Source: Spirochaetaceae bacterium (GTDB lineage Bacteria > Spirochaetota > Spirochaetia > DSM-2461). Taken from it: DNA of 24,928 bases. The position numbers and the translations under genes were made by a program. The notes below the pieces were generated by a model. That model was not told where the DNA came from. It worked only from the letters and a program-made list of their open reading frames with translations, and did not search any database. How positions within the stretch are numbered: position 1 is the first letter of the stretch; each line of letters opens with the position of its first letter. Positions 1,198 through 17,472 of the stretch are shown here, piece after piece. The stretch covers positions 1-24,928 of the forward strand of contig JAOPTT010000007.1 in assembly GCA_051531975.1 (NCBI GenBank), in the 5' to 3' direction.

Positions 1198-1207
1198 ATT
1201 GTTATAG

Positions 1208-1248
1208 GATAGTGTTTTATCTTTGTATAAAGCACTATCTATTTTTTT
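1208..1248 (+). terminator. Stem-loop plus T-run after the SBP gene (partial terminator or mRNA-stabilising hairpin)
   Basis: GATAGTGTTTTAT (1208-1220) pairs with ATAAAGCACTATC (1227-1239) with one G-U pair; followed by TATTTTTTT. Confidence 0.7.
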
Positions 1249-1266
1249 AAATAAGCGGTGGTTTTA

Positions 1267-2157
1267 ATGAATTCAAATTCTTTACATAAAAAAAATACAG
1301 ATTACTTTACAAGTTTTCTCTTTATTGTACCTGCATTAACGATCTTTCTTTTATTCTTTTTATCTCCTGTAGTTGTTTCAGGATATTACTCTTTTTTCCG
1401 TTGGAATGGAATTGGGGAAATGAGTTTTATAGGATTAAAAAACTGGGTAGAATTAATGGGCGATGTGGTGTTCTGGAAATCTCTTTCACACAACTTACAA
1501 TTATTATTTACAGCAGTTGTTGTTCAGTTTTGTCTGGGATTATTTTTAGCTTTGTTTATTACTCTAAAAAAGGGTAAAAGGATTAATTTTCTAAAAACTT
1601 GTTATTTTATTCCTTTCATTTTATCTACGGTGTTCGTAGGTCTTTTGTGGGGATATATCTTAGCCTGGGATGGAATGCTTAATTCAATTCTTGATCAGTT
1701 TCACTTCGGTTGGCTCAAACGAGATTGGCTCGGCGACCCTAAAATATCGTTGCATTCATCAATAATCGCAACATGCTGGAGAAATTATCCATTTTTTATG
1801 ATTCTTTTCCAGGCTGCTATTGTAGGAATTCCACAAACTCATTTTGAGGTAGCTCAAATCGAAGGAGTATCTAAAGTACAAATGTTATTCTTTGTAATTA
1901 TACCGGGAATAAAACATACTTTTATGAATGCCGTATTGCTTATAATTCTCGGTTCACTAAAATACTTCGATATTATTTTTGTTATGACGCTTGGAGGTAC
2001 AAATCACTCGGCAGAACTTATGGCGACATATATGTACAAAAACGCATTTGAAAACTTCAGAATGGGTTATGGTTCTACCATAGCAATGGCGATGTTTATA
2101 TTCATGATAATAATTGCCACTATCTTTCAAATATTTCGAAAAAGGAGGGATATATAA
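1267..2157 (+). CDS. Carbohydrate ABC transporter permease (MalF-like)
   Basis: Multiple TM segments, FIGLKNW motif, degenerate EAA loop (FEVAQIEGVS), GYGSTIA C-terminal motif. ATG 1267 preferred (GGTGG upstream); the ORF track starts at GTG 1258. Confidence 0.92.
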   Translation: MNSNSLHKKNTDYFTSFLFIVPALTIFLLFFLSPVVVSGYYSFFRWNGIGEMSFIGLKNWVELMGDVVFWKSLSHNLQLLFTAVVVQFCLGLFLALFITLKKGKRINFLKTCYFIPFILSTVFVGLLWGYILAWDGMLNSILDQFHFGWLKRDWLGDPKISLHSSIIATCWRNYPFFMILFQAAIVGIPQTHFEVAQIEGVSKVQMLFFVIIPGIKHTFMNAVLLIILGSLKYFDIIFVMTLGGTNHSAELMATYMYKNAFENFRMGYGSTIAMAMFIFMIIIATIFQIFRKRRDI

Positions 2158-3008
2158 TGATAAAATCTTTAAAAATTGAAAAACCTTCTGATTATTTATT
2201 TAAAATTGTTATCTGGTCGTTAGCTCTATTTTGGCTATTTGTTACTATATATCCACTGTTTGTCATGGTTATTAATTCTCTTAAAACCAGGTCGGAATAT
2301 ATGGTTTCAACTATGTGGGCTATGCCCAAAAAAGCAACACTGAATAACTATCTTGTAGTATTTGAATCGGGATTTATGAGAAGTTATTTAAACAGTATTA
2401 TTGTAACGGTTTGTTCATTAACTATTATGATTTCATTTTCTACTCTTGCTGCTTATGGTTTATCGAAATTGAAATTCCCTGGTAGCAAACAAGTATATGC
2501 AATATTCATTGCAGGTATGATGATTCCCATTCATATAACAATAATTCCTATATTTAAACTGACACAGAGTCTTCATCTCTATGATAGTCTTGCTGGTCTA
2601 ATTGGTCCCTATGTGGCAAGTGCACTACCGATGGCAATCTTTATCCTTAAAGGATTTATAGACGCTGTGCCTAGTGAACTAAATGAGGCTGCAGAGATTG
2701 ATGGTGCTGATAAGTTTGTAACATTCAGATTGATCATCCTACCGGTTTTAACACCAGCAATTGCAACCGTAATGATATATAATGCGGTCTACTATTGGGG
2801 TGAATTTGTTTATGCTCTTGTTTTGACAATGAGCAAAGAAAACAGAACTATTAACCTTGGACTGTGGGCATTTTATGGTGAAAGAGGGGTAGATTTAACC
2901 CTAATATTCTCTGCATTGGCTATATGTTCAGTACCGCTAATAATTGTATATGCAATATTTCAAGAGCGGGTTATCAATGGTATGGTCGCTGGAGCTGTAA
3001 AAGGTTGA
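2157..3008 (+). CDS. Carbohydrate ABC transporter permease (MalG-like)
   Basis: EAA motif ELNEAAEIDGA, C-terminal GMVAGAVKG, AGGAGG RBS, and start overlapping the upstream stop (TAATG). Confidence 0.93.
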   Translation: MIKSLKIEKPSDYLFKIVIWSLALFWLFVTIYPLFVMVINSLKTRSEYMVSTMWAMPKKATLNNYLVVFESGFMRSYLNSIIVTVCSLTIMISFSTLAAYGLSKLKFPGSKQVYAIFIAGMMIPIHITIIPIFKLTQSLHLYDSLAGLIGPYVASALPMAIFILKGFIDAVPSELNEAAEIDGADKFVTFRLIILPVLTPAIATVMIYNAVYYWGEFVYALVLTMSKENRTINLGLWAFYGERGVDLTLIFSALAICSVPLIIVYAIFQERVINGMVAGAVKG

Positions 3009-3013
3009 TCTAA

Positions 3014-3053
3014 TATAAACAGTCAGGATAAAACTTTAAACTGACTGTTTATA
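3014..3053 (+). terminator. Perfect 13-bp inverted repeat between the ABC permease and the MCP
   Basis: TATAAACAGTCAG (3014-3026) and CTGACTGTTTATA (3041-3053) with a 14-nt loop. There is no long T-tail, so it may be leaky. Confidence 0.55.
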
Positions 3054-3066
3054 CACTAGGAGTCAT

Positions 3067-4944
3067 ATGAAAATACGTTCAAAGTTTTTAACTCTCATAA
3101 TAGGTATAATGATATCCGTTATTGCATCTATCTCAATTCTGGTAATAAACAATCTCCACATTCGTGACATTGATAAAGAAAGATTACTTATGAATGATCT
3201 TCTCTTCGCTTATCATGAACTTTCAATTTATAATGAGCAGCTTTACACAAAAGATATAAAAAGAACTATCAATCGTTTTTCAGAATCGGTGGAACGGGCG
3301 GATCATCTGATTGACAAAATCAATACACTCAAATATCTCAATCAACTAAATCCATTAATTAGTGAATCTCTAGAGAGTATTTACATCTTGAAAGAAAACC
3401 AGCAAAGTCTCTTAAAACAAGTTCTTGATGGGGCTGATCTTCTTATTCGTGATTTTCAAGATATAGGCGGGGCCAATATTAGTTTCATCATGTCCGATCT
3501 ACCGATCAACCCTTTCATTGTAGATAGACCTGGTTATGAAAAGATTATAGATCATCTCTCCGAAGAAAGAAGTACTATTGAGTCTCTAGGTATTCATTTG
3601 GAGGGAAGTATCAATGTAATTATCACTCAGAATCAACTAATTTTAGAGGAGATAGAAAAGACTTCACAACGTAGTCTGACTTCATCGGTGTTAATATCAT
3701 CTATACTTATTGTTTTTAGCCTGATTGCAGCTGTATTCATTACTTCATCTATCGGAAAATCTATATTTCAGATTAGGCAGGAAGTCTCAAAACTGACCTC
3801 GGGTAATCTGACATTGGACTTTAATACAGAAGGAAATGATGAAATTACCGACCTCAAAAAGGATTTAAGTAGATTTCTTGTTAAATTGAATCAGTCAATT
3901 ACAGAAATAAAAAAAATATCTGTAATCAATTCCTCAATAAAAGAGAGTTTACTGGAATCAACAGAGGAATCATCTGCAGCTACGGGGCAGATAAAATCAA
4001 ATATTGATTCCATTAACAATCAGCTTCAGCTGTTAGATGATAGTATAAAGCAATCATTATCCTCAATTGAAACAATTGATAATATCATTACTGAAGAAAG
4101 TTCTCAGATCTCGAAGCAAATTACAATGGTAGAACAAGCATCAACATCTATTACCCAGATGATCAGCTCTATAAATTGTGTAGTAAAAACGACTGAAATC
4201 AATCAGGAAGCAACGGGCTTATTAGTGTCTATTGCCCAATCGGGAGGTCAGCAGATAAATAGTACATCGGTTGTTATAAATGAAGTAAAAGAGTACATTA
4301 GTGATATTAATAATATGGCTGATTTTATTCAATCCATTTCTCAGCAGACAAATTTACTCGCCATGAATGCCGCAATTGAAGCAGCTCATGCTGGAGACGC
4401 TGGAAAAGGATTCGCTGTTGTTGCCGACGAAATAAGGAAGTTAGCAGAAGCTTCTTCTAGGAGTTCAAAAGATATAAGAAGTACAATTAAGTCTATAATT
4501 CTTAAAATTACTGAAGCTGGTGATTCTTCCGACTCAACTATTGTTGCCTTTAAAAGTATTAATGAACAAATACAGAATGTAGAGGAAACACATTCTGGGA
4601 TTCACCAGAGTATGAAAGAACTGAAAGTTGGAAGCTCAAGCATTCTTGAAGCTATGTTTCATCTTAAGAAGTTTTCAAAGGATGTACAGGAAGGTTCCGA
4701 GAATATGAATGGTGCATCCGCTGTAGTAAGTTCCACAATAACTCAGGTTCAAAGGGTCTCTATCGAAACTATGTCAGGTATGAATGAAATGGTTATGGGA
4801 ATAAATGAAATCCTAGAATCCATGAACCATCTAACAGATATTTCAATGGAAATTCACGGTATCAGCGAAGAACTAAATAATTCGGTCTCATTTTTCAGGA
4901 CAAAGAGTATCACTGATAATGATCATGATACTTCTCGAGTTTAA
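3067..4944 (+). CDS. Methyl-accepting chemotaxis protein
   Basis: Two TM helices flank a periplasmic domain, followed by HAMP (GNLTLDFNTEGNDEITDL) and the signalling hairpin QTNLLAMNAAIEAAHAGDAGKGFAVVADEIRKLAE. AGGAG RBS. Confidence 0.95.
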   Translation: MKIRSKFLTLIIGIMISVIASISILVINNLHIRDIDKERLLMNDLLFAYHELSIYNEQLYTKDIKRTINRFSESVERADHLIDKINTLKYLNQLNPLISESLESIYILKENQQSLLKQVLDGADLLIRDFQDIGGANISFIMSDLPINPFIVDRPGYEKIIDHLSEERSTIESLGIHLEGSINVIITQNQLILEEIEKTSQRSLTSSVLISSILIVFSLIAAVFITSSIGKSIFQIRQEVSKLTSGNLTLDFNTEGNDEITDLKKDLSRFLVKLNQSITEIKKISVINSSIKESLLESTEESSAATGQIKSNIDSINNQLQLLDDSIKQSLSSIETIDNIITEESSQISKQITMVEQASTSITQMISSINCVVKTTEINQEATGLLVSIAQSGGQQINSTSVVINEVKEYISDINNMADFIQSISQQTNLLAMNAAIEAAHAGDAGKGFAVVADEIRKLAEASSRSSKDIRSTIKSIILKITEAGDSSDSTIVAFKSINEQIQNVEETHSGIHQSMKELKVGSSSILEAMFHLKKFSKDVQEGSENMNGASAVVSSTITQVQRVSIETMSGMNEMVMGINEILESMNHLTDISMEIHGISEELNNSVSFFRTKSITDNDHDTSRV

Positions 4945-4952
4945 CAATCTCA

Positions 4953-4990
4953 CAATAATTTAATTAGCTTAACAGTTAATTAAATTATTG
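4953..4990. terminator. Inverted repeat between the convergent MCP and gntR genes (likely bidirectional terminator)
   Basis: CAATAATTTAATTAGCT (4953-4969) and AGTTAATTAAATTATTG (4974-4990): 17 bp with one mismatch and a 4-nt loop. Very AT-rich, so weak. Confidence 0.55.
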
Positions 4991-5593
4991 GATATTTTTT
5001 TCCAATAGAGTTAATACCACTTCTTTGTCACACTTTTTTATTGCGTTTAAAATAGTTCTGTGTTCAGTATAACAATCCATTAAATTATCAAGTCGTGTAT
5101 ATCTAAGCATCATACGGTTTACTATAGTGGTCCATAATTCTAAGAGGTGTTTATCTTCATGTTTCTGTACAATTAATTTGTGAAACTGCAGGTCATAATC
5201 TATAATAGAATAAATATCATCACTCTCACAGGCTGAACGAAGATTCTCTACTGTGTGTTCCATATCAATAAAATCTTCATCTGTATATAATTCGAGGTTT
5301 TCGACAATGACAAAAAGTTCGATTTGTTTTCTAAATGCAATAATCATTGATAAAACATTTTCTCCAGGATGAGATGCAACTTTTACTCCCACATTTGGTT
5401 TTGATATCAAAAATCCACCTTTGGATAAAGATTTTAAGGCGTCTCTAACAGGACCTCTACTGACTTTGTATTTCTTTGACAACTCTATTTCCTTTAAAGC
5501 TTCACCTTCAGACAGAGCTCCGGTTATAATTTCCCTTCGAATTTGATTGGCTATTTGTTCAGATATTGTTAGAAATACTTTATTATTGTTCAC
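4985..5593 (-). CDS. GntR family transcriptional regulator (FadR/FCD-type C-terminal domain)
   Basis: N-terminal wHTH (ISEQIANQIRREIITG...EIELSKKYKVSRGPVRDAL). FCD motifs DLQFHKLI and EHRTILNAI. GTG start with AAGGA upstream. Confidence 0.93.
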   Translation of the reverse strand: MNNNKVFLTISEQIANQIRREIITGALSEGEALKEIELSKKYKVSRGPVRDALKSLSKGGFLISKPNVGVKVASHPGENVLSMIIAFRKQIELFVIVENLELYTDEDFIDMEHTVENLRSACESDDIYSIIDYDLQFHKLIVQKHEDKHLLELWTTIVNRMMLRYTRLDNLMDCYTEHRTILNAIKKCDKEVVLTLLEKNIQ

Positions 5594-5630
5594 GAACTAC
5601 CATCCTTATTTAATACATTATTATTTAAGC

Positions 5631-5668
5631 ATGTTAACAATATATAGTATTTTGTCGATTGTTAACAT
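5631..5668. promoter_or_regulatory. Putative GntR operator sites upstream of gntR (autoregulation)
   Basis: ATGTTAACAAT (5631-5641) and its inverse ATTGTTAACAT (5658-5668). The minus strand of 5652-5668 reads ATGTTAACAATCGACAA, matching the sites at 5790 and 10618. Confidence 0.65.
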
Positions 5669-5788
5669 AGGTGGAATACATTTATTTATATAAATCAGGT
5701 AAAATAGAGGTTAAATGGATCAAAAAATTGGAATTATTCGCATTTATGCATTATCAAAGTAAAAAAATCTACAGATTGCATGTAATAT

Positions 5789-5820
5789 ATTGTTGACAAT
5801 CTACAAAAAGAGTGTAGAAT
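5789..5820 (+). promoter_or_regulatory. Sigma70-type promoter of the catabolic operon, overlapped by an operator
   Basis: TTGACA (5793-5798), 16-bp spacer, TAGAAT (5815-5820). The operator-like TTGTTGACAATCTACAA (5790-5806) covers the -35 box. Confidence 0.75.
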
Positions 5821-5872
5821 ATATTTAATAGTCAGAGAAAATAGACTATAATAATGAAAAGGAAGGAATAAT

Positions 5873-7486
5873 ATGAAGAAAGCTTTTTTAATGGTTTCTA
5901 TGATTTTTTTTGGTATCGCTTTATTTGCAGCGGGAAATCAAGAAGAGGAGAAAACAACTGGTGAATTATCTGCAAAGGGGGTATTTCCTGTTATATCAGA
6001 ACCAATTACAGTTGATATGTTAATAGTCAAAAACCCACTAGTAAAAGATTATAATACAAATGCATTTGTAAACTGGTTTTCAGAAACTACTAATGTGAAT
6101 TTTACCTTTGATGAAATGACCCACGAAGATGAAGAACAAAAAGTTAACCTTTTACTTGCTGCTCAACAATATCCTGAAGTTATGCTGACATGGGGATTAA
6201 ATGCTGCACAACTAGCAGAATATGGTGGAAACGGTTCTTTGTTACGATTAAACGAACTAATTGAAGAACATGCACCAAATCTTACAAAACTTTTTAATGA
6301 TCATCCATGGCTAAAAGCCGGAGTGACTCTTCCTGATGGTGGAATCTATACATTGCCATGGGCTGAAGAAAATTATCAGACAACAATGCACTGGAGAATG
6401 TACGTTTATTCTCCTTGGATTGAGAAATGGGGTGGTGAACCTCAGACTACTGAAGAATTCTACCAATTCCTTAAATGGGTTAAAGAAGAAGATCCTAATG
6501 GTAACGGAGTAGCTGATGAGGTTCCTCTTAACTCTGCAAGAGGTTGGGGTAGTTCTGATGTTGTAACATTTCTTATGAATTCATTTGTCTATACAGATTA
6601 TGAAACATATCTTGATCCAAATAATGGTAAACTTGATTTTGCTCCAATATCCGAGGAGTGGAAAGAAGGTCTAAAATATATTGCAAAACTATATTCTGAA
6701 GGTTTAATTACTCCTGACGCCTTTACTGCACCTTATGGTGAGCAGCAGGCAATGGGTGAAAGCGATCCCGCTATTCTAGCAGCCGGAACTGCTGGTTGGA
6801 TGAATGAGATAGCTGTAAATTATGGCGATAGTGGTAGATATATGGAATACAATACTATGCCTCCTTTAGCAGGACCTGACGGTGCTAGGTATGCAGTAGT
6901 TGAAACTCCTTTTGTAAGAAATATGCTTGCTATAACTGATAGAAGTAATAATCCTATAGCAATTATTAAAGCTTTTGATATGTGTTATGATCCTGACGTA
7001 GTAAAGAAACTCTATTATGGAGTTGAAGGTGACCACTGGAGAAAAGCAGATGCTGGGGAATTAGGACTAAACGGAAAACAGGGTGACTTTATGGTTATTA
7101 AACCAAAAGGTGCTGAAGTTCAAAATGATATGGTTTACAACTTATGGCCATCTTTTAGAAGTGCTGATTTTTTTAACGGCATAGTTACAGATAATCACGA
7201 TACTAATCATGAAGCAAGACTTTTAAGATCAGCTCAGTCTTATGCTCCATATGCAACAAAAGAAGCATTAGGTCCCCTGTTTTTTACAGTTGAAGAGATT
7301 GAGACTATGCAGGATGAAACTGAAAATCTTCTTGAATCTGTTAGAAACTGGTCTGCCAGATTTGTTACAGGAACAGATGATATCGACGCTAGTTGGGATG
7401 AATATGTGGCTGAACTAGAAGGTTTAGGGTATAAAACATATCTTAAACTCAACCAGGAATCATATAATAGAGCTAGAGGGAAATAA
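5873..7486 (+). CDS. Oligosaccharide ABC transporter substrate-binding protein (LplA-like), probably for agar-derived oligosaccharides
   Basis: Signal peptide MKKAFLMVSMIFFGIALFA-AGNQE without Cys. Motifs EPQTTEEFYQFL, DPNGNGVADEVP, YGVEGDHW and WDEYVAELEGLG are typical of the LplA class. Substrate inferred from neighbouring genes. Confidence 0.88.
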   Translation: MKKAFLMVSMIFFGIALFAAGNQEEEKTTGELSAKGVFPVISEPITVDMLIVKNPLVKDYNTNAFVNWFSETTNVNFTFDEMTHEDEEQKVNLLLAAQQYPEVMLTWGLNAAQLAEYGGNGSLLRLNELIEEHAPNLTKLFNDHPWLKAGVTLPDGGIYTLPWAEENYQTTMHWRMYVYSPWIEKWGGEPQTTEEFYQFLKWVKEEDPNGNGVADEVPLNSARGWGSSDVVTFLMNSFVYTDYETYLDPNNGKLDFAPISEEWKEGLKYIAKLYSEGLITPDAFTAPYGEQQAMGESDPAILAAGTAGWMNEIAVNYGDSGRYMEYNTMPPLAGPDGARYAVVETPFVRNMLAITDRSNNPIAIIKAFDMCYDPDVVKKLYYGVEGDHWRKADAGELGLNGKQGDFMVIKPKGAEVQNDMVYNLWPSFRSADFFNGIVTDNHDTNHEARLLRSAQSYAPYATKEALGPLFFTVEEIETMQDETENLLESVRNWSARFVTGTDDIDASWDEYVAELEGLGYKTYLKLNQESYNRARGK

Positions 7487-7498
7487 TCTCTCTTTCTA

Positions 7499-7550
7499 AT
7501 AATAGAATGGTGGTGAGAACAGTATCATCATTCTATTATATTATTTTTTT
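7499..7550 (+). terminator. Stem-loop plus T-run after the second SBP gene
   Basis: ATAATAGAATGGTGGTG (7499-7515) pairs with TATCATCATTCTATTAT (7523-7539). The three non-Watson-Crick positions are all G-U on the + strand. Followed by ATTATTTTTTT. Confidence 0.7.
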
Positions 7551-7594
7551 GAAAATATATTTTGCTTAATGGCGAGGGATGGTTTTTTTTAGAA

Positions 7595-8521
7595 ATGAAA
7601 AACTTGAGAAAAATTAACAAATTAGGTATGTTAAAACAGAATTGGCAATTGTATGTCTTAGTTTTATTACCACTTATATTTATCATAATATTCAACTATG
7701 TTCCAATTTATGGAGCACAGATAGCATTCAGGCGATTCAGTGCCAGAGCTGGTATTTTGGATAGCAATTGGGTGGGTTTAAAGTATTTTATAAAATTCTT
7801 TCAAAGCCCAATGTTTAAGATAACTATGCTCAATACAATTAAGCTTAGTATAATCGAGATGGCTTTGACCTTTCCATTACCAATAATATTGTCCATATTT
7901 CTTCATTATATGATGAAGTTAAAATATAAAAGTGTTGTTCAAATGATAACATATGCACCATATTTTATCTCAGAAGTTGTTGTTGTTAGTATTTTATTTG
8001 AGTTATTATCGACCCGAACAGGAGCCATTAATAATTTGATTAGGATGTTTGGGGCAGAACCTATAAACTTCCTCGGGAATCCTGAGTATTTTAGAATGGT
8101 TTATTCAGTTTCCTCTGTCTGGCAGATTGTTGGATTCAGCTCTATTGTATATCTGTCTGCATTATCAAGTGTCAGTCCAAGTTTACATGACTCTGCAACA
8201 ATCGATGGTGCAAATAAATTACAGCGAATACTTTATATTGATCTACCATCAATTATGCCAATGATAATGATAATGTTGATTCTACGTGTTGGATATTTCA
8301 TGAATGTTTCATTTACAAAGGCGTTACTTCTACAAAACCCTCTGAACATATCATCCTCAGAAATTTTGTGGACCTATACTTATAAAATCGGATTTGCAAA
8401 TGGCTCTCCACAGTTCTCCTATGCTAGTGCCATTGGTTTAGTCGCAAATATAATCAATTTCACTTTACTTCTATTAGTTAATTATGCAAGTAAAAAAACA
8501 AGTAAAGTAAGTCTGTTTTGA
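7595..8521 (+). CDS. ABC transporter permease (LplB-like)
   Basis: WQLYVLVLLP, FNYVPIYGAQIAF, WVGLKYF and EAA loop LHDSATIDGA. Start uncertain (TTG 7562, ATG 7595 or ATG 7628). Confidence 0.92.
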   Translation: MKNLRKINKLGMLKQNWQLYVLVLLPLIFIIIFNYVPIYGAQIAFRRFSARAGILDSNWVGLKYFIKFFQSPMFKITMLNTIKLSIIEMALTFPLPIILSIFLHYMMKLKYKSVVQMITYAPYFISEVVVVSILFELLSTRTGAINNLIRMFGAEPINFLGNPEYFRMVYSVSSVWQIVGFSSIVYLSALSSVSPSLHDSATIDGANKLQRILYIDLPSIMPMIMIMLILRVGYFMNVSFTKALLLQNPLNISSSEILWTYTYKIGFANGSPQFSYASAIGLVANIINFTLLLLVNYASKKTSKVSLF

Positions 8522-9435
8522 GGATGTATAGAACCATGAAAAGTTTTAAAGATAAAAAAAAGTTAGATATCGATAAAGTTTTTGATATCTCAAATTACAT
8601 AATATTAGGTATTGTTCTGGTAGTGACAGCTTATCCACTAATATATATATTGAGCAGCTCCTTTTCAGGTTATGATGCTCTGATGAAAGGAAAAGTTGTT
8701 TTGTGGCCTGTAGATTTTTCTATAGAGGGGTACAGGGCTATCTTCAGTGATAACAGTGTAATAGTAAGTTTTTTTAACAGTGTTTTTATTGTTGTCTTTG
8801 GTACGATGCTTAATGTCTTTTTGACCATAATATGTGCTTATCCTCTTTCTAGGAAGGATTTCTATGGTAGAAATGTTCTTATGTTTATATTCAGCTTCAC
8901 TATGTATTTTAATGGAGGGTTGATACCAACATTTATGCTTGTGAAAAATCTTGGATTATATAATACCAGATTAGCTCTGATTCTACCCGGTGCTATAGCC
9001 GTATATAATATGATAATTGCAAAAACGTATTTCCAGCACAATATTCCCGATGAATTTTGGGAATCCGCAAAAATAGAGGGTTGTGATGATTTTACATTTA
9101 TATGGAAAATTGTTGTGCCTGTATCAAGGCCTATAATAGCTGTAATTACTCTCTATTATGCTGCGTATCACTGGAACTCTTGGTTTCAGGCTATGATCTA
9201 TTTGACAAATGATAGTCTGTATCCACTTCAGTTATACTTGCGAAATATATTAGTGTCATTGACTCAGGCAGCCTCTTCTATGGTTGATGCTGAAAATCAG
9301 GCCCATAGAACTAAAATCGTTGAAGTTATGAGATATTCTCTCATTGTCGTAGCAAGTGTACCAATGCTTATAGCTTATCCTTTTGTTCAGAAACACTTTG
9401 TTAAAGGGATAATGATGGGAGCCATAAAAGGATAA
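8518..9435 (+). CDS. ABC transporter permease (LplC-like)
   Basis: AYPLSRKDF, FTMYFNGGLIPT, EAA loop WESAKIEGC and YPFVQKHFVKGIMMGAIKG. The real start may be ATG 8524 or 8536. Confidence 0.92.
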   Translation: MRMYRTMKSFKDKKKLDIDKVFDISNYIILGIVLVVTAYPLIYILSSSFSGYDALMKGKVVLWPVDFSIEGYRAIFSDNSVIVSFFNSVFIVVFGTMLNVFLTIICAYPLSRKDFYGRNVLMFIFSFTMYFNGGLIPTFMLVKNLGLYNTRLALILPGAIAVYNMIIAKTYFQHNIPDEFWESAKIEGCDDFTFIWKIVVPVSRPIIAVITLYYAAYHWNSWFQAMIYLTNDSLYPLQLYLRNILVSLTQAASSMVDAENQAHRTKIVEVMRYSLIVVASVPMLIAYPFVQKHFVKGIMMGAIKG

Positions 9436-9440
9436 TTATT

Positions 9441-10571
9441 ATGAATAAAAAAGAACAGAGTTATGCAATGGATAGATTTAAGGTAGATGATGGGGATAAT
9501 CCCTTTTTTACCTTATTTAGATATAGTCCGATTAAAGGTTTAGGTTATGAACCGGGGATAGGTAGACGGGATCCAAGTAATATTATTAAAGTCCAGGAGA
9601 CGTATTATCTTTGGTACACCAGGATTAGTGGGGAAAAACCTGTAGGTGTTCCAAAGTCTAATGAGGCTAGAAGAGCCTATAAGTGGGATCTGGCAGAAAT
9701 TTGGTATGCAACATCAAAAGATGGTGTGGATTGGGAAGAGCAGGGTGTCGCTGTAAAAAGAGGTCAAAAAGGTTGTTTTGATGATCGAAGTGTTTTTACT
9801 CCTAATATTTTAGTTGCAGAGGGTAAATACTACTTAGTTTATCAAGCTGTTAAGGCACCATATGTTCACAGAACTAAAAATGTAGCTGCTATGGCTGTAT
9901 CGGATTCTCCAGAAGGTCCATGGACGAAGTTTGATTCACCTGTTTTGAAGCCAGATGATAGTGGTATCTGGTTTGGAGATGAACTGGATGAAGAAGTTGA
10001 GTGGACTAAAGTTGAAACTCCAGGTGCCTGGGATAGTATGAAAATTCATGATCCAGGATTCCTTGTAAGAGACGGGAAATACTGGCTCTATTATAAAGGA
10101 CAGCAGATAGGAAAACATCCCTGGGAATCAAAATGGGGAGTCGCCGTAGCTGATAAGCCAGAAGGACCCTATGTAAAAAGTTTGCTAAATCCTATAACCA
10201 ACAGTGGTCATGAGATTTGGATGTGGCCTTATAAAGGCGGTGTATGCGCTATGGTTGACTGGGCTGGACCTGAAAAAAATACAATTCAATATTCTGAAGA
10301 TGGATTAAACTTTGAAGTTGTCTCAGCTGTGGAGAACATTCCACCAGCAGGTGGAGCTTATATTCCAGACCTTTTTACCAATACAAAAGATGGAAAAGGA
10401 TTCACATGGGGATTATGCCATCACAGTGATGATGAATGGGATTTTTTAGTTCGTTTTGATTGTGACTTAGAACGGGGAAAAGAGAAAGATTTTATTACTG
10501 TATATAATGATTATGCAAAAATTAAAGCTGTTTATGCAAATAGAGAACTTTTTTATGCAGAAAATAATTAG
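9441..10571 (+). CDS. GH117 family glycoside hydrolase (putative alpha-1,3-(3,6-anhydro)-L-galactosidase / neoagarooligosaccharide hydrolase), cytoplasmic
   Basis: GH117 N-terminal SxAxxR signature (SYAMDR). Catalytic motifs RRDPS and NSGHE, plus WYATSKDG, DRSVFTP, YQAVKAPY, KIHDP and GPEKNT. No signal peptide. Confidence 0.88.
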   Translation: MNKKEQSYAMDRFKVDDGDNPFFTLFRYSPIKGLGYEPGIGRRDPSNIIKVQETYYLWYTRISGEKPVGVPKSNEARRAYKWDLAEIWYATSKDGVDWEEQGVAVKRGQKGCFDDRSVFTPNILVAEGKYYLVYQAVKAPYVHRTKNVAAMAVSDSPEGPWTKFDSPVLKPDDSGIWFGDELDEEVEWTKVETPGAWDSMKIHDPGFLVRDGKYWLYYKGQQIGKHPWESKWGVAVADKPEGPYVKSLLNPITNSGHEIWMWPYKGGVCAMVDWAGPEKNTIQYSEDGLNFEVVSAVENIPPAGGAYIPDLFTNTKDGKGFTWGLCHHSDDEWDFLVRFDCDLERGKEKDFITVYNDYAKIKAVYANRELFYAENN

Positions 10572-10616
10572 ATAAAACAGTAAATAAATAATATTATATA
10601 ATTTTGCAAACTATGT

Positions 10617-10634
10617 ATTGTTAACAATTGACAG
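10617..10634 (+). promoter_or_regulatory. Putative GntR operator and internal promoter element upstream of the cycloisomerase
   Basis: Perfect palindrome ATTGTTAACAAT (10617-10628) extended by TGACAG; contains TTGACA (10628-10633). A matching -10 box is not obvious. Confidence 0.65.
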
Positions 10635-10683
10635 TATACGGTTTGTGAATGTAAGTATCACCATAAGATAAACGGAGTTAAAT

Positions 10684-11787
10684 ATGGAAAATAAATCCAC
10701 AATTACTAAATTGAATACACAATACTTTAAAGTTCCATTAAGTGAAGCATTGGTTGATGCGGTTCATGGTACACATACCCATTTTGAACTAATTACGGTT
10801 ACTATCGTATTGTCGGATGGAACCGAAGGTACTGGATATACATATACAGGCGGGACTGGTGGAAAAGCAATTTATCAGGTTATAGAGCACGATTTAAAAC
10901 CGTGGATTATTGGAAAAGACGGTAGTCAGATTGAAGGATTATGGGAGGCCATGGGGTGGAAAATCCATTATGTTGGAAGAGGTGGTATAACATCTTTTGC
11001 TATTTCTGCTATAGATATTGCACTCTGGGATATCCGAGCAAAAAAAATTAATCAGCCTTTATGGAAACTTGCTGGTGGGGCGGATAATTCATGTAAAGCT
11101 TATTATGGCGGAATTGATCTTGATTTCCCGTTGGAAAAATTATTATCAAATATCCAACATCAGCTAAATAATGGTCATAGGGCTATCAAAATAAAACTGG
11201 GGAAAGAACATCTATCTGAAGATCTTGAGAGAGTGAAAGCTGTTAGAGAAATGATAGGTCCCGATGTTGTCTTTATGGTTGATGCAAATATGTCTTGGAC
11301 TGTTGAAAAGGCTATAAAAGCAGTGAAAGAACTGGAAAAATATAATATATTCTGGCTCGAGGAACCAACAATCCCAGATGATTATTACGGAATTGCACAG
11401 ATTGCAGATTCATCATCCGTTGCCCTTGCTATGGGAGAAAATCTTCATACAATATATGAACATAAACATGCATTACAGTTCAGTAAAATAAGTTTCATAC
11501 AGCCCGATGCCTCTAATATCGGTGGTATTACTGGTTGGCTTAAAGTTGCAAACTTAGCAGAAGCTTTCAATATTCCAGTCTGTTCTCATGGTATGCAGGA
11601 GCTACATGTAAGTCTTCTCTCTGCTGTTCCACACTCGGGATATTTGGAAATACACAGTTTTCCAATAGATCAATATACGGAAAATCCCATCAAAGTTGAA
11701 TGTGGAAGAGTCAAAGCTCCAGATACACCTGGAACTGGAGTTGTTTTTAATTGGGAAAAACTAAATCCCTTCAAAATTGAGCTATAA
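10684..11787 (+). CDS. 3,6-anhydro-L-galactonate cycloisomerase (mandelate racemase / enolase superfamily)
   Basis: MR-subgroup motifs KIK, DAN, WLEEP, GEN, QPD and CSH. Segments HGTHTHFELIT, GTGYTYTGG, IHYVGRGGI, GGIDLDFPLEKLL, GENLHT, HGMQELHVSL and LEIHSFPID closely match the Vibrio AHG cycloisomerase as I recall it. Flanked by two GH117 genes. Confidence 0.85.
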   Translation: MENKSTITKLNTQYFKVPLSEALVDAVHGTHTHFELITVTIVLSDGTEGTGYTYTGGTGGKAIYQVIEHDLKPWIIGKDGSQIEGLWEAMGWKIHYVGRGGITSFAISAIDIALWDIRAKKINQPLWKLAGGADNSCKAYYGGIDLDFPLEKLLSNIQHQLNNGHRAIKIKLGKEHLSEDLERVKAVREMIGPDVVFMVDANMSWTVEKAIKAVKELEKYNIFWLEEPTIPDDYYGIAQIADSSSVALAMGENLHTIYEHKHALQFSKISFIQPDASNIGGITGWLKVANLAEAFNIPVCSHGMQELHVSLLSAVPHSGYLEIHSFPIDQYTENPIKVECGRVKAPDTPGTGVVFNWEKLNPFKIEL

Positions 11788-11790
11788 TAA

Positions 11791-11847
11791 GATAATTATG
11801 GAGTTCAAGGATATACAATTACAGTTGATGGAGGCTGGTTAATTTGA
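11791..11847 (+). pseudogene. 3' remnant of a kduD-like short-chain dehydrogenase gene
   Basis: The intergenic bases translate to DNYGVQGYTITVDGGWLI-stop, matching the KduD C-terminus (DYVNGYTIAVDGGWLAR). Its TGA overlaps the next gene's ATG (TGATG). Confidence 0.75.
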
Positions 11848-13085
11848 TGAAAAAAAAGAATATATTTCCTGCACAATACCCTACAAAAAAACCAACAAAT
11901 ATTGATTTGAGTCCTGCAATGGAGAGAATCTATGATTATTGGGATGCTACAGATGATAGAAATAATGAATTTTTTACAAATTTTAAGTATTCACGTATCA
12001 CTGGAATTGGAAAAGAAAAATCTGTATCCCGGAGAGATGCTTCTAAGATCTTAAAAAAAGATGATAATTATTATGTCTGGTATACTAGAAGAGAGACCGA
12101 CTGTCCTCCTGTAGGAATGGATAAATGCACTGATGAATTTCCTGCAGTTGACTGGGACTTGGCTGATATTTATTATGCCACCAGTAAAGATGGATTTGAC
12201 TGGCAGGAGCAGGGTATTGCCGTTGGTCGTTCACCTAAAGGTGAATATGGAGACAGGTCTGTAACAACTCCAGATATTCTCTATTATAAAGAGAAATATT
12301 ATCTCTATTATCAATCTTTTACAGGCAGGTTTACACCTGAAAAGGGAGACTATTGTGATGTAAGTATGTCATGGTCTGATTCTATTTGTGGACCATGGAT
12401 AAAATGTGAAAAATCAGTTGTTGATCTAGGTTCAGAAAATGATTGGGATGGCGGAGCAATACATGATCCTTATCCCCTAGTATATCAGGGTAAAATATGG
12501 ATGTTTTATAAAGGGCAACCAATAAAAAATGGAAGGGATTGTATGATTAGAGCTCAGGGTGTAGCTATCGCCGAAGACCCACTTGGTCCATATGTTAAAC
12601 ATGACCTAAATCCTCTGTTAAACTCAGGACATGAAACCTGCCTATACCCATATAAACAGGGGATAGCAGCTCTACTTATCTTTGACGGTCCAGAAAAAAA
12701 TACGGTACAGTTTGCTCCTGATGGTATTAATTTTGAGCCAAAAGCTTCAGTTCAGTTACCACCGATAGCTCCAGGACCATTCTGTCCTGACGCATTTGCC
12801 GATAATGGTGATGGTAAGGGCATATCATGGGGTTTGTGTCATATGGGTGCTAATACTGTCTCTCCTGATAGCGAGAGGAAAATTGTTGAACACTCCTCTT
12901 TCCTCGCTCGTTTCGACTGTGATCTACATGTTAATATAGATAGACAGTATTTTAAAAATCCCCATGACCACGTGGGGCGTTTTGGTGAAGAAGTTTTTTT
13001 TCAGGAAAAGATGATGCTGGAAGATGAACCCAAAAATAAAATTATTACTGAAAGTAGTTTGCTAGATAGCGAAACGATTATATAA
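11847..13085 (+). CDS. Second, divergent GH117 family glycoside hydrolase, cytoplasmic
   Basis: LSPAMER (SxAxxR), SRRDAS, WDLADIYYATSKDG, DRSVTTPDIL, IHDPYP, NSGHET and RFDCDL. No hydrophobic signal peptide. GGAGG at 11830-11834; start is TTG 11844 or ATG 11847. Confidence 0.85.
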   Translation: MKKKNIFPAQYPTKKPTNIDLSPAMERIYDYWDATDDRNNEFFTNFKYSRITGIGKEKSVSRRDASKILKKDDNYYVWYTRRETDCPPVGMDKCTDEFPAVDWDLADIYYATSKDGFDWQEQGIAVGRSPKGEYGDRSVTTPDILYYKEKYYLYYQSFTGRFTPEKGDYCDVSMSWSDSICGPWIKCEKSVVDLGSENDWDGGAIHDPYPLVYQGKIWMFYKGQPIKNGRDCMIRAQGVAIAEDPLGPYVKHDLNPLLNSGHETCLYPYKQGIAALLIFDGPEKNTVQFAPDGINFEPKASVQLPPIAPGPFCPDAFADNGDGKGISWGLCHMGANTVSPDSERKIVEHSSFLARFDCDLHVNIDRQYFKNPHDHVGRFGEEVFFQEKMMLEDEPKNKIITESSLLDSETII

Positions 13086-13105
13086 GAAAATTGGAGGAAG
13101 ATAAT

Positions 13106-15016
13106 ATGGTGTACGGTATTAGAAACAGAATATTAAGAGTAAATTTAACTACTAAGGAAATATCAGTAGAAAACCCTGGTGAAGAAATATTTAAAAAATA
13201 TATAGGTGGGAAAACCCTAGGAGCCTATTATCTGAATAAGGAGGTAGACCCTAAGTGTGACCCCCTATCTCCTGAGAATAAAGTTTTTGTATTTCTTAGT
13301 CCATTAACAGGAGCTCCTATTCCTGGAACTTCCCGTTTTTCTGTACTCTCCAAATCTCCCATCTCAGATGCTTTTGGTGATGGAGAAGCGGGTGGTTTTT
13401 TTGGCCCAGAACTAAAATTTGCTGGCTTTGATGGTATCATCATTGAAGGGAAGTGTGATTCTCCTTGTTATCTCTCAATTATTGATGATGATATTCAAAT
13501 TAAAGATGCAGCTAATCTTTGGGGAAAAGATACGGGAGTTGTTGAAAAACTGATCCGTGAAGAAAATGAACAACCTAGAATGAGAGTACTCCAGACAGGT
13601 CCTGCTGGGGAAAATATGGTACGTTTCGCCGCTTTGACAAATGAGCTTAAACACTGGAATGGTCGATGTGGTCATGGTGCGGTTTTTGGTTCAAAAAACC
13701 TTAGGGCGATCGCGGTTAAAGGTTCTAGCAAAATTGTAATGAAAAACGGGGCCGCAGTTAAAGAGTATATAAAAGAATTTTCTGCTAATGCTAGAGAAAG
13801 TCAGGCTCTTAAAGATTTTGGTAATTGTGGAACTTCTGGTTTAGTGGAAATTTTAAGTGATATGGGAATTCTTCCTACAGAAAACTTCGCAAAAGGTTCA
13901 TTTGATCATGCTAAAGATATTGATGGTATAAAAATGAACAATGAACTTCTAGTAAAGAGAGAGAGTTGTTTTGCCTGTCCTGTACGTTGCAAGAGGGTTG
14001 TTGAATCTAAAGATGAAAAAATGCCTATCGACAAAGATTATGGTGGCCCTGAATATGAAACTCTTGGAGCACTAGGTTCTAATTGTGGTATTAAAGATAT
14101 TAAAACTGTCTGTAAGGCTAATGAATTATGTGGCCGATATGGTATGGATACAATTGGTGCAGGTATGACGATTGGTTTTGCCATAGAGTGTTATCAGAAA
14201 GGCTTTCTTACAAAAGAAGATACAGGTGGTTTGGAACTGAAATTTGGTGACGGTGAACTTCTTCTGCAGTTGCTGGAAATGATTGGAAAACGTGAAGGTT
14301 TTGGTGATGTTTTAGCAGAAGGAAGTTACCGTCTATCTGAAAAGCTTGGTGAAGAGACAAAAGCATTCTGTATGACTTCAAAAAAGATGGAGTTTGCCGC
14401 TCATGAGCCCCGTGGGAAATGGAATGTTGGTCTTGGATATGCCCTTTCTCCAAATGGAGCTGATCATGTTGTTGTTGAACATGATCACGGTTTTATTGGA
14501 GAACCGGATATAACAGATGATAAACAAAGTGGCGATCTGATTTATCCACTCTTTAAGTTTGGGATAAGAAAATCAATTGATCCTTTGAGTCTTGATAATG
14601 ATAAACTTAGACTGTTTGTAGTTCTGCAGAAACTTTGGTGTCTTTGTGATACTCTCGACGTCTGTATATTCCTAGCTGCTCCAAGTAGAAGGTTCTCATC
14701 TATTGAAGATCTACTTAATGCTTTAAATAACATTACAGGATGGGATCTTAGTCTTATTGAATTGATGCAAGTAGGTGAAAGAGCTACTGTTCTAGCAAGA
14801 CATTTTAATGCTCGCTGTGGAATAACTTCTAAAGATGAAACATTACCAGATCGATCTTTTGAGCCTCTGGAAAATGGACCTCTAAAAGGGATTGCCATAG
14901 ACCGAGAAGCGTTTGAAAAAGCTAAACGACTCTATTACCAGATGACAGGAATGGACAATGAAGGCAGGCCTTTAGATGGTAAAATGGTGGAGATGCAACT
15001 TGAGGAACTGATGTAG
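13106..15016 (+). CDS. aor: Aldehyde:ferredoxin oxidoreductase family protein (tungstopterin, 4Fe-4S)
   Basis: ILRVNLT, YIGG, DPLSPEN, GGFFGPELKFAGFDGIIIEGK, GPAGENMVRFA and GAVFGSKNLRAIAV. Fe-S ligands CFACPVRC plus the distal DTLDVC. Also GPEYET, GMDTI and GADH. GGAGG at 13093-13097 favours ATG 13106 over TTG 13091. Confidence 0.93.
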   Translation: MVYGIRNRILRVNLTTKEISVENPGEEIFKKYIGGKTLGAYYLNKEVDPKCDPLSPENKVFVFLSPLTGAPIPGTSRFSVLSKSPISDAFGDGEAGGFFGPELKFAGFDGIIIEGKCDSPCYLSIIDDDIQIKDAANLWGKDTGVVEKLIREENEQPRMRVLQTGPAGENMVRFAALTNELKHWNGRCGHGAVFGSKNLRAIAVKGSSKIVMKNGAAVKEYIKEFSANARESQALKDFGNCGTSGLVEILSDMGILPTENFAKGSFDHAKDIDGIKMNNELLVKRESCFACPVRCKRVVESKDEKMPIDKDYGGPEYETLGALGSNCGIKDIKTVCKANELCGRYGMDTIGAGMTIGFAIECYQKGFLTKEDTGGLELKFGDGELLLQLLEMIGKREGFGDVLAEGSYRLSEKLGEETKAFCMTSKKMEFAAHEPRGKWNVGLGYALSPNGADHVVVEHDHGFIGEPDITDDKQSGDLIYPLFKFGIRKSIDPLSLDNDKLRLFVVLQKLWCLCDTLDVCIFLAAPSRRFSSIEDLLNALNNITGWDLSLIELMQVGERATVLARHFNARCGITSKDETLPDRSFEPLENGPLKGIAIDREAFEKAKRLYYQMTGMDNEGRPLDGKMVEMQLEELM

Positions 15017-15086
15017 ACAAAATATAAAAAACTGCATAGTAAATCTTATTAATAATATTTAGATTATGAAAAAGTGGAAATAACTT

Positions 15087-15116
15087 GATGGAGTATAAAA
15101 TTATATATACTCCATC
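15087..15116. terminator. Inverted repeat between the convergent aor and antiporter genes
   Basis: GATGGAGTATA (15087-15097) and TATACTCCATC (15106-15116): perfect 11 bp. Confidence 0.6.
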
Positions 15117-15153
15117 TGCTATTTTAAATTGGGATTAAACTGGTGGGTTACTT

Positions 15154-16089
15154 TTAAATAAGCTCGTACTGTTTTAAGTTGTAATAAACATACATAAGTA
15201 GGAATAGGAATCCATATATTCTGTATACTTTTTTAGCCTGAGCAATAATCATAAAAATTAGAGTAGACATTAATAACATTGGTAAAGTGAATGAAATAAT
15301 ACTTTTAGGAATTATTAAATTACTCATCATAGCTGGGATACCCATAACAGCTAATATGTTAAAAAGATTTGAACCTAATACGTTACCAACAGCCATCTCG
15401 TTTTGACCTTTTCGGCCAGCTTGAATTGTAACCATTAATTCTGGTAGAGAAGTCCCTAATGCAACAGCTGTAGAGGCAACAATTTCATTACCAACTCCGA
15501 TAAAAGCTGCGATCTCTGTAATTGCTATTATTAAATATTTTGAACTTATATATATTCCGATGGGGGTTAAAATAAGTAAAATCCAGTCTTTTGCAGTTGG
15601 AATATGGGCTTTCTCGTTAATTAATTCTTCTATTGAACCATCTTTTAATGATCTGTATAGATATAAAAGTAACATTATTAGACAGATTATTCCTTCACCA
15701 AAAGTAAAGTTTAAATCCATAACTGCAATAGATATATATCCTGTTGCTAATAGTAAAAATGGAAGGTCTGTTTTCATTATGTCGTGCTTAATTTCAAAAC
15801 TTTTAGAGAATAGAGCTGATGCACCAAAAACAAGGAACATATTAGCAATGTTTGAACCAAAAACATTACCAACAACCATCTCCGTTTTTCCAATTGAAAC
15901 AGCCATAATCGAAGTAACTAACTCTGGTAAAGATGTCCCAATTCCTACTAATATCACACCAATAACAAATGATGGTAGTTTTAAGAACTTACCAATACTA
16001 TCTGCGGCTTCTATAAATTTATCTGACGCCCAGACAAGTATAGCAACACCTACTATAAAAATAACTATTTGTAATAATAAATCTGTCAT
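15154..16089 (-). CDS. yrbG: Calcium/sodium antiporter (CaCA family, YrbG-like)
   Basis: Two alpha-repeats, GTSLPEL...GNVFGSNIAN and GTSLPEL...GNVLGSNLFN, with about 10 TM segments. Confidence 0.92.
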   Translation of the reverse strand: MTDLLLQIVIFIVGVAILVWASDKFIEAADSIGKFLKLPSFVIGVILVGIGTSLPELVTSIMAVSIGKTEMVVGNVFGSNIANMFLVFGASALFSKSFEIKHDIMKTDLPFLLLATGYISIAVMDLNFTFGEGIICLIMLLLYLYRSLKDGSIEELINEKAHIPTAKDWILLILTPIGIYISSKYLIIAITEIAAFIGVGNEIVASTAVALGTSLPELMVTIQAGRKGQNEMAVGNVLGSNLFNILAVMGIPAMMSNLIIPKSIISFTLPMLLMSTLIFMIIAQAKKVYRIYGFLFLLMYVYYNLKQYELI

Positions 16090-16161: not shown

Positions 16162-17472
16162 TTATGCAAATGCTGGTATTAACGCTAGTAGAATTCCGGC
16201 TGCAACTGCAGAACCAAGAACTCCAGCTACATTTGGGCCCATTGCATGCATTAACAGATAGTTTGAAGAGTCCTCTTCAAGACCAACTTTATTGGCAACC
16301 CTAGCCGCCATAGGTACTGCAGAAACTCCTGCAGCTCCAATAAGAGGGTTTATAGGGGTTTTTAAGAATTTATTCATAAGTTTTGCTAATAAAACACCAC
16401 AAGTAGTTCCAATACTAAATGCAACTAAACCTAGTGCTAAAATACCAAGAGTTTTAGGGTCTAAAAACTTTTCTGCGGCCATTTTTGAACCAACAGAAAG
16501 CCCTAAAAATATTGTTACAATATTAATTAGCTCACCTTGCATTGTACTTGCTAATCTATCTACTTTTCCACACTCTCTAGCAAGGTTTCCAAACATTAAA
16601 GCACCAACTAGTGGAGTTGCAGTAGGTAGTAAAATTATACATATAATCAGTACAACTATAGGGAATATTATTTTTTCAGCTTTTGATACAGGTCTAAGCT
16701 GAACCATTTTAATCTTTCGTTCTTCTTTAGTTGTTAAAAGCCTCATTATTGGAGGTTGAATTATCGGTACTAACGCCATATATGAATATGCAGCAACCGC
16801 AATAGCTCCAAGTAAGTTAGGGGCCAGTTTAGATGCTAAAAATATAGCTGTAGGACCATCTGCGCCACCAATTATTCCAATTGCACCAGCCTCTGGAAGT
16901 GTAAAATCTAGTATTCCATTTTGACTTAAAGCCAATGCACCTAAAAGAGTTGCAAAAATACCAAACTGGGCAGCTCCACCGAGTAGTGCTGTTTTAGGGT
17001 TTGCTAAAAGTGGACCAAAGTCTGTCATAGCTCCAACACCCATAAAAATAATCAGAGGAAATAGACCACTTTCTACTCCAAATCCATATAATTGCCCAAC
17101 TAAACCACCAAAAGATGTAAAATGTCCTTCGGCAATACCAACAAAACCATTTAGATTTCCATCGGTTATACCTAGCTCTTTTGCTTTTCCTAATACACCG
17201 GAACCATAATGAGCTAGAGTATTAGTATCTATACTTTTTACAAAATTAACAGTGGCATCAGCAATACCGGCAGTTGGAATATTTGCAAATATAGCTCCCA
17301 TACCAATAGGTACTAATAAAAGTGGTTCAAAGTCTTTTTTAATTGCTAAAAAAAGCAATGTAAGTCCAACTAATATCATAACAACTTGGCCAAGAGCAAA
17401 GTTCATAATTCCAGTTGACTTCCACACTTCTACTAAAGCCTCTCTAATATTTAATTGTAGTAGTAGGTTCAT
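16162..17472 (-). CDS. oadB: Sodium ion-translocating decarboxylase beta subunit
   Basis: [43 protein letters not shown] and [13 protein letters not shown]. Confidence 0.96.

Follow-up and report, generated by a model that had tools for sequence, protein, structure and literature searches.

The DNA analysed here is a 24,928-nucleotide stretch of a Spirochaetaceae bacterium (assembly GCA_051531975.1, contig JAOPTT010000007.1, positions 1 to 24,928 of the forward strand), referred to below as the window. It carries a predicted catabolic cluster for 3,6-anhydro-L-galactose (L-AHG), the assignment being made on the joint presence of GH117 enzymes and a 3,6-anhydro-L-galactonate (AHGA) cycloisomerase. 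The subject of this report is the 59-nt gap (11788–11846) between the cycloisomerase gene, ACI (10684–11787, plus strand), and the second of two GH117 genes, GH117b (11847–13085, plus strand); its sequence supports the view that it preserves the codons for the C-terminus of a short-chain reductase of the KduD family, and that it is a remnant and no gene. ACI is intact, carries the Pfam domains MR_MLE_N and MR_MLE_C and matches PDB entry 5xd7 ('3,6-anhydro-alpha-L-galactonate cycloisomerase') over residues 4–365 (E = 5.3e-152). GH117b, which has a native N-terminus, matches PDB entries 4u6d (E = 5.7e-108) and 4ak5 (E = 2.8e-66). Upstream of ACI lies GH117a (9441–10571, plus strand; Pfam GH43/GH32N), of the anhydro-alpha-L-galactosidase type, whose best solved relative is 4ak5, deposited as ANHYDRO-ALPHA-L-GALACTOSIDASE (E = 1.6e-99). 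Downstream of GH117b, the last gene of the co-directional unit encodes an aldehyde:ferredoxin oxidoreductase (AOR) of the tungsten family (open reading frame (ORF) from 13091, likely ATG 13106, to 15016, plus strand; domains AFOR_N and AFOR_C).

Read in the frame of ACI, the gap begins with a second stop codon, as the ACI stop (TAA, 11785–87) is followed directly by another TAA (11788–90), giving tandem stops at 11785–11790. The 18 codons between these and the next stop (11791–11844, from GAT AAT TAT to TGG TTA ATT) translate as DNYGVQGYTITVDGGWLI, and that next stop, TGA 11845–47, shares one A with the GH117b start codon (ATG, 11847–49). A first-pass annotation of this DNA had described the same spacer reading, the TGATG overlap and a Shine-Dalgarno-like GGAGG (11830–11834) within the GAT GGA GGC (D-G-G) codons, and all three are confirmed letter for letter; the position from which it started the peptide, 11788, belongs to the second stop codon, and the peptide runs from 11791. 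Read-through from ACI into the peptide, which lies in the same frame, is blocked by the tandem TAA TAA, and no in-frame ATG, GTG or TTG occurs within 11791–11844. Translation of this stretch, either by read-through or as an ORF of its own, was rejected on account of the two upstream stops and the lack of a start codon. An alternative frame contains a mini-ORF of 14 codons (11798–11842, ATG to TAA) with no convincing Shine-Dalgarno sequence, which is probably meaningless. The predicted fold of the 11770–11880 RNA is unremarkable (z = -0.13), and a scan of 9300–15300 for promoters and terminators returned nothing within the spacer.

The peptide resembles the C-terminal end of KduD, 2-dehydro-3-deoxy-D-gluconate 5-dehydrogenase (TIGR01832). 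E. coli K-12 kduD was fetched and translated (C-terminus ...SASDYVNGYTIAVDGGWLAR), and 11 of 14 residues proved identical over VQGYTITVDGGWLI, which bears out the earlier identification of GYTIAVDGGW as a KduD-type C-terminus. Scored without gaps against this tail (BLOSUM62), the spacer peptide reaches 63, compared with a best score of 33 elsewhere in the six-frame window and with a mean of 30.2 (sd 2.8, maximum 40) in 200 shuffled windows. For comparison with other bacteria, 80 loci were collected from species-representative genomes by a scan with a GH117b alignment (best GH117b identity 66%), and the window proteins and E. coli KduD were mapped onto them by tblastn; the counts of loci given below refer to the fetched flanks. 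A KduD-like profile was built from 43 sequences, namely 42 locus reductases encoded beside GH117 genes plus E. coli KduD. This profile placed the spacer peptide first of 1329 six-frame peptides (E = 0.023, the next at E = 9), and phmmer with the E. coli KduD query found it at E = 0.0021. When the tails of 45 reductase-like locus ORFs were scored against the peptide, the 42 KduD-like ones gave 43–63 and the three other short-chain reductases 11–29. A set of 150 KduD-like representatives, drawn from 1.84 billion proteins, gave tail scores with a median of 43 and a maximum of 63 (the E. coli-type tail of P0453); a T preceding VDGGW and an L following W are both found in this set. The match extends to the family's C-terminal end, at a stop that abuts the start of the next gene.

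Expressed as a pattern, the KduD tail is G-x-T-x-x-VDGGW-[LM]-x-R followed by a stop, and the spacer has it as GYTITVDGGWLI plus stop, with the terminal R replaced by TGA. The resulting 3' remnant, (Q)GYTITVDGGWLI, occupies 11806–11844 on the plus strand and is supported by tail similarity, profile, phmmer and shuffles. A KduD-type short-chain reductase has about 250 residues, with an N-terminal Gly-rich dinucleotide-binding motif and a catalytic Ser/Tyr/Lys set, and the spacer is no full-length member of this type. Start codon, cofactor motif and catalytic residues are all missing from it, and it is therefore classed as a remnant, not a gene; its partial similarity to the family is significant, no translation is possible and both flanking genes are intact. 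No further reductase-like segment was found in the window, either among its 19 ORFs (none with adh_short) or among the 1329 six-frame peptides. The locus reductases used for comparison have TIGR01832 (kduD) as their best NCBIfam match, at 322–326 bits.

Both neighbours of the gap end where their relatives do. The ACI C-terminus (...PFKIEL) is level with those of 44 locus homologs (for example ...PHKIEL* in L053), and the GH117b N-terminus, MKKKNIFPAQYP, aligns with MKKNTPFPAQFP of P0002 and MIKDKNVFPAYYP of P0001. Since both ends are native, the event took only material between ACI and GH117b. At the right edge, DGG occurs near the end in 114 of the 150 KduD-like representatives. Four residues follow it in 109 of these 114, Arg is the last residue in 74, and the three residues after DGG that the remnant has are seen in none; likewise, all 43 profile tails (42 locus reductases and E. 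coli KduD) read VDGGW[ML][GA]R. TGA 11845–47 thus stands at the position of the terminal Arg codon, as relatives' tails carry one more residue. In the remnant frame it is followed by a second TGA (TGA TGA, 11845–11850), and the ancestral reductase probably ended ...WLIR-stop at 11848–50, with an ATGA overlap with the ATG at 11847. A single later substitution, CGA or AGA to TGA, would have turned the Arg codon into the present stop, and the present TGATG overlap is probably secondary.

A different origin is likely for the left part of the spacer: from the Y/F to the G of GYT, three residues intervene here and two in all 43 tails. Reading DNY as the family's S-D-Y was rejected on this ground, the spacing being one residue too long, so that DNY(G) is probably not reductase-derived and the reductase-derived part probably covers only about 11806–11850. 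The left segment, ATAAGATAATTATGGAGTT (11787–11805), looks like a translation-initiation region, with GGAG at 11800–03. It resembles ATAAGATAAACGGAGTT at 10663–10679, 4 nt before the ACI ATG at 10684, and the pattern ATAAGATAAN{2,4}GGAGTT, chosen post hoc, has no occurrence beyond these two and is absent from 100 shuffles. Of the 21 positions 11779–11799, 18 also agree with 9419–9439, ahead of the GH117a ATG, a match within the range of chance repeats. The order (C)ATAA..GATAA, then GGAG or AGGA, is common to all three regions; this shared AT-rich motif could be an initiation-region pattern, a regulatory site or chance. The segment 11787–11805 may be an orphaned ribosome-binding site of a gene once located after ACI. 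The likeness to the ACI upstream region is suggestive only, and to that extent it lends some weight to the earlier proposal that TATGGAG was the ribosome-binding site of the first deleted gene. If the left part is such an orphan, the junction would fall at about 11806–11809.

From the GGAGG within the D-G-G codons it is 12 nt to ATG 11847 and 9 nt to TTG 11844, an alternative GH117b start; a purine-rich complement of the anti-Shine-Dalgarno sequence would be expected at 5–10 nt from the start. This GGAGG is the only Shine-Dalgarno-like run ahead of GH117b, with none closer. The other window genes that were read have GGAG, GGAGG or AGGA about 6–9 nt ahead of their starts; for the AOR gene it is GGAGG at 13093–97, 8 nt from ATG 13106. 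The GGAGG of the remnant is the predicted ribosome-binding site of GH117b.

A reductase of this family is what the pathway would lead one to expect. The Pseudoalteromonas atlantica-type route, according to the account in PMC5943477, runs from L-AHG via AHGA, L-KDGal and L-DDGal (2,5-diketo-3-deoxy-L-galactonate) to KDG and KDPG, and the corresponding genes in Paraglaciecola are ordered ACI, L-KDGal 5-dehydrogenase, L-DDGal reductase and AHG dehydrogenase; the first two L-AHG steps are also described in PMC11219438. The enzyme type that reduces L-DDGal to KDG in this published route is KduD-like, so that the place which the first-pass annotation gave to such a reductase, after the cycloisomerase, agrees with the steps L-KDGal to L-DDGal to KDG as laid out there (PMC5943477). 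Within the comparison set, ACI is present in 44 of the 80 loci and a KduD-like gene in 42, and the two occur together in 39, that is, in 39 of the 44 ACI-bearing loci. Because KduD-like genes accompany ACI so regularly, the remnant backs the L-AHG assignment of the window, as had been claimed. A KduD-like gene is present in most Chloroflexota and gammaproteobacterial loci. In the window itself, Pfam assigned none of the 19 ORFs to an NAD(P)-dependent L-AHG dehydrogenase of the aldehyde dehydrogenase (ALDH) type, an L-KDGal 5-dehydrogenase, an L-DDGal reductase or a KDG kinase, and a search of all six frames returned no trace of a Zn-dependent alcohol dehydrogenase (ZnADH), ALDH or KDG kinase (all E > 2.6).

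The first-pass annotation had called for a comparison with syntenic loci of relatives that might keep an intact reductase gene; the loci compared here are distant, all at 66% GH117b identity or less. In three of the 80 (L018, L020 and L031) GH117b is immediately preceded, on the same strand, by a KduD-like gene. The L018 locus, from Anaerolineales, has the order ZnADH, KduD-like gene, GH117b, ACI, ALDH, with the reductase stop 24 nt ahead of the GH117b start, and the tblastn map shows the order KduD, GH117b, ACI in the other two as well. A reductase gene on the same strand between ACI and GH117b is found in L009 (Cellvibrionales), with the order ACI, KDG kinase, ZnADH, KduD-like gene, ALDH, GH117b. 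The gammaproteobacterial locus L004 has ACI, ZnADH, KduD-like gene and ALDH, and in L003, L005–L007 and L053 the tblastn map gives the same spacing from ACI to KduD as in L004.

The window genes also differ in their affinities. The housekeeping-type genes suggest a Thiospirochaeta-like spirochaete: OadB (16162–17472, minus strand) encodes a protein 90% identical to OadB of Thiospirochaeta perfilievii. The nearest named relatives of GH117b are from Reichenbachiella (66%), with gammaproteobacterial loci at 63–66%, and those of ACI are from Clostridium (67–71%). Since OadB is spirochaete-like, while GH117b lies near Bacteroidota and Gammaproteobacteria and ACI near Clostridium, the agar module was probably acquired horizontally. 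GH117a, ACI, GH117b and AOR each fall into 90%-identity clusters with proteins encoded on contigs of 350,119 and 15,169 bp, from which we judge that two close relatives keep all four genes on one contig each. More distant relatives include one with both ACI and GH117b on a contig of 5,281 bp, as well as Clostridium sp. DL1XJH146 and C. grantii. The OadB homologs of close relatives are not on the contigs that bear the agar genes.

In the account that we regard as highly probable, the spacer is a KduD-family remnant, GH117b formerly lay behind the reductase, and the rest of the reductase gene was deleted. A KduD-type reductase gene would have stood directly upstream of GH117b in an ancestor, translationally coupled to it via a stop/start overlap, and its D-G-G codons would have happened to contain GGAGG. 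A deletion would then have taken all but the last 12–14 reductase codons, probably together with whatever separated the reductase from ACI, the likeliest lost neighbour being a Zn-dependent L-KDGal 5-dehydrogenase. After the loss, ribosomes terminating on ACI (11785) would be 59 nt from the GH117b start, so that initiation on GH117b would have to be fresh. A deletion reaching further to the right would take GGAGG away and silence GH117b, and the present endpoint would have survived because a longer reach would remove the only Shine-Dalgarno-like site of that gene. Of the earlier claim that an ancestral reductase gene was lost here by deletion, the KduD-family remnant is supported, while the former presence of a reductase between ACI and GH117b and its loss in place are presumed, the best comparison locus being 66% identical.

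Several observations weigh against this account. The profile E-values are modest (0.002–0.02) on account of the remnant's shortness; the bit scores of the locus reductases lie slightly under the curated kduD cut-off of 338.85, and their tails (VDGGWMGR) are less like the remnant than that of E. coli KduD. The distance of 12 nt from GGAGG to ATG in GH117b is longer than the approximately 6–9 nt of other window genes. The initiation-region motif on the left was defined post hoc, and comparable short repeats arise by chance in AT-rich DNA. Three Spirochaetia loci (L025, L026 and L029) have the order GH117b, GntR, ACI with no KduD-like gene within 10 kb, and hence a reductase beside GH117b is not the rule in the phylum; spirochaetes may in general handle L-KDGal differently. 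The ancestral order ACI...reductase, GH117b is a presumed one for this lineage, the best locus being only 66% identical in GH117b. A rival reading is an assembly artefact, in which an intact reductase gene of the real genome would have been collapsed or mis-joined in this window, taken from a 309,777-bp contig. Such an artefact is very improbable. No long repeat able to explain assembly collapse or recombination is present at the junction, where the longest similarities nearby are 15–21 nt and imperfect; ACI and GH117b are complete, in phase and have native ends, and the junction shows two clean stops and a plausible initiation-region motif.

The modest E-values likewise speak for a chance resemblance, in which an AT-rich spacer with a GGAGG would happen to encode a reductase-like peptide. 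An in-frame GGAGG readily gives G-G or D-G-G, and an open frame of 18 codons is, by estimate, about 25% likely at this composition. Chance would hardly account, however, for a score of 63 that lies about 11 sd above the 200 shuffles, with the rest of the window at 33 or below, nor for a similarity that spans GYTI.VDGGWL, beyond DGG, and stops exactly at the family C-terminus beside a stop codon, in the very family expected from pathway and synteny; we consider it extremely improbable. A rearrangement with its breakpoint inside a reductase gene would yield an identical remnant; within the remnant reading it is less likely than deletion and on balance unlikely. A GH117b–AFOR block would have been moved or acquired with a breakpoint in the donor's reductase gene, carrying about 40 nt of it along behind ACI, and no reductase would ever have stood between ACI and GH117b. 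In its favour, ACI lies downstream of GH117b in L018, L020 and L031, the only loci where a reductase gene immediately precedes GH117b; the relatives of OadB, GH117b and ACI suggest that the cluster is horizontally mobile; and the close relatives have their OadB homologs on other contigs than the agar genes. On the other hand, the left part of the spacer resembles an orphaned initiation region right after ACI, fitting a lost downstream gene, and gammaproteobacterial loci have ZnADH and a KduD-like gene after ACI, with ACI...KduD...GH117b on one strand in L009.

The surroundings of the four genes were also annotated. The co-directional plus-strand unit starts with a solute-binding protein gene (5873–7486) and continues with two permease genes (7562–9435) ahead of GH117a, ACI, GH117b and AOR. 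Region 1–9435 contains two separate sugar ABC uptake systems, on either side of a methyl-accepting chemotaxis protein gene (3067–4944) and a divergent GntR/FCD regulator gene (4985–5593, minus strand); GntR homologs occur near GH117 and ACI in most comparison loci too. The spacer between GH117a and ACI (10572–10683) is 112 nt long, very AT-rich and much wider than the unit's other gaps; an internal promoter or a regulatory site may lie in it, and the promoter-like matches there are weak. A terminator-like hairpin with an 11-bp stem, readable on both strands, lies at 15087–15116 between the AOR gene and the convergent Na/Ca-exchanger gene. GH117a and GH117b share 42% identity and fall in different clades, GH117a near 4ak5, 3r4y and 3p2n and GH117b near 4u6d and 4u6b; the nearest structures of GH117a are characterised galactosidases, those of GH117b (4u6d and 4u6b, Zobellia paralogs) were deposited as hypothetical proteins. 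Several GH117 copies are present in many of the 80 comparison loci.

Engineered in-frame deletions of the Keio type reportedly leave a gene's final codons in place so that the downstream ribosome-binding site is spared. The kept 3' end of the reductase is like that design in that it would avoid polar loss of the next gene, and unlike it in being a natural remnant with no retained start codon in its frame. Compared with KduD, the remnant keeps the last 12–14 of about 253 codons, has a stop at the terminal Arg and cannot act. Its C-terminal sequence is shared with KduD and the KduD-like L-DDGal 5-reductase of the P. atlantica-type pathway, and it keeps the same genomic company, GH117 and AHGA cycloisomerase, as that reductase does in the account of PMC5943477. 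Gene remnants and pseudogene scars left by operon-internal deletions, deletions that bring co-directional genes together, and stop/start overlaps formed by deletion are described in 'The Life-Cycle of Operons' by Price, Arkin and Alm (PMC1480536). As at the junctions treated there, co-directional genes would have been drawn close and the predicted downstream initiation signals kept; unlike the cases given in that account, the deleted gene can here be named from its surviving codons, the Shine-Dalgarno sequence lies inside them, and the spacing is wide (59 nt) without overlap (PMC1480536). Shine-Dalgarno sequences inside the 3' coding end of an upstream gene are likewise known (PMC2784483). The GGAGG of GH117b conforms to this in lying within the former D-G-G codons of the upstream gene, and differs from the embedded sites of that report in that the upstream gene is gone, the site is in untranslated RNA and coupling to the reductase is lost (PMC2784483). 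As gene remnants, operon-tightening deletions and Shine-Dalgarno sequences in upstream coding ends are all known, the remnant is a tidy new instance and no new kind. It would offer a clean natural example of non-random endpoints of operon deletions, in which the surviving piece carries the next gene's predicted ribosome-binding site. For annotation, it cautions that a 59-nt spacer can hide a pseudogene fragment missed by gene callers and domain scans (minimum length at least 20 aa).

For the organism, the remnant provides sequence-internal, independent support for the annotation of an L-AHG (agar sugar) module, in which, like its counterparts in other agar degraders, GH117b would once have followed a KduD-like reductase. 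A more novel lead is the AOR that comes directly after GH117b, in a module lacking an L-AHG dehydrogenase of the usual ALDH type. This AOR matches PDB 1aor over its full length (E = 4e-127), and the exact 636-aa protein from ATG 13106 is present in the protein collection. An AOR-family gene was found in none of the 80 GH117 loci within the fetched flanks, and no paper in the literature searched contained 'aldehyde ferredoxin oxidoreductase' together with 'anhydro-L-galactose'. The AOR is a candidate substitute for the NAD(P)-dependent L-AHG dehydrogenase and may oxidise L-AHG with ferredoxin in an anaerobe. A broader scenario, which we put forward as a rather doubtful one, would have the scar mark a change in how an anaerobic spirochaete similar to Thiospirochaeta catabolises L-AHG: the KduD-like reductase would have been lost, probably with the Zn-dependent L-KDGal dehydrogenase, no ALDH would be present, a tungsten-type AOR would oxidise L-AHG to anhydrogalactonate with ferredoxin, and L-KDGal would take a different downstream route. 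Lacking both reductase and ALDH and having an AOR-family enzyme in their stead, the pathway here departs from the published ones, and this departure is a more interesting question than the scar itself.

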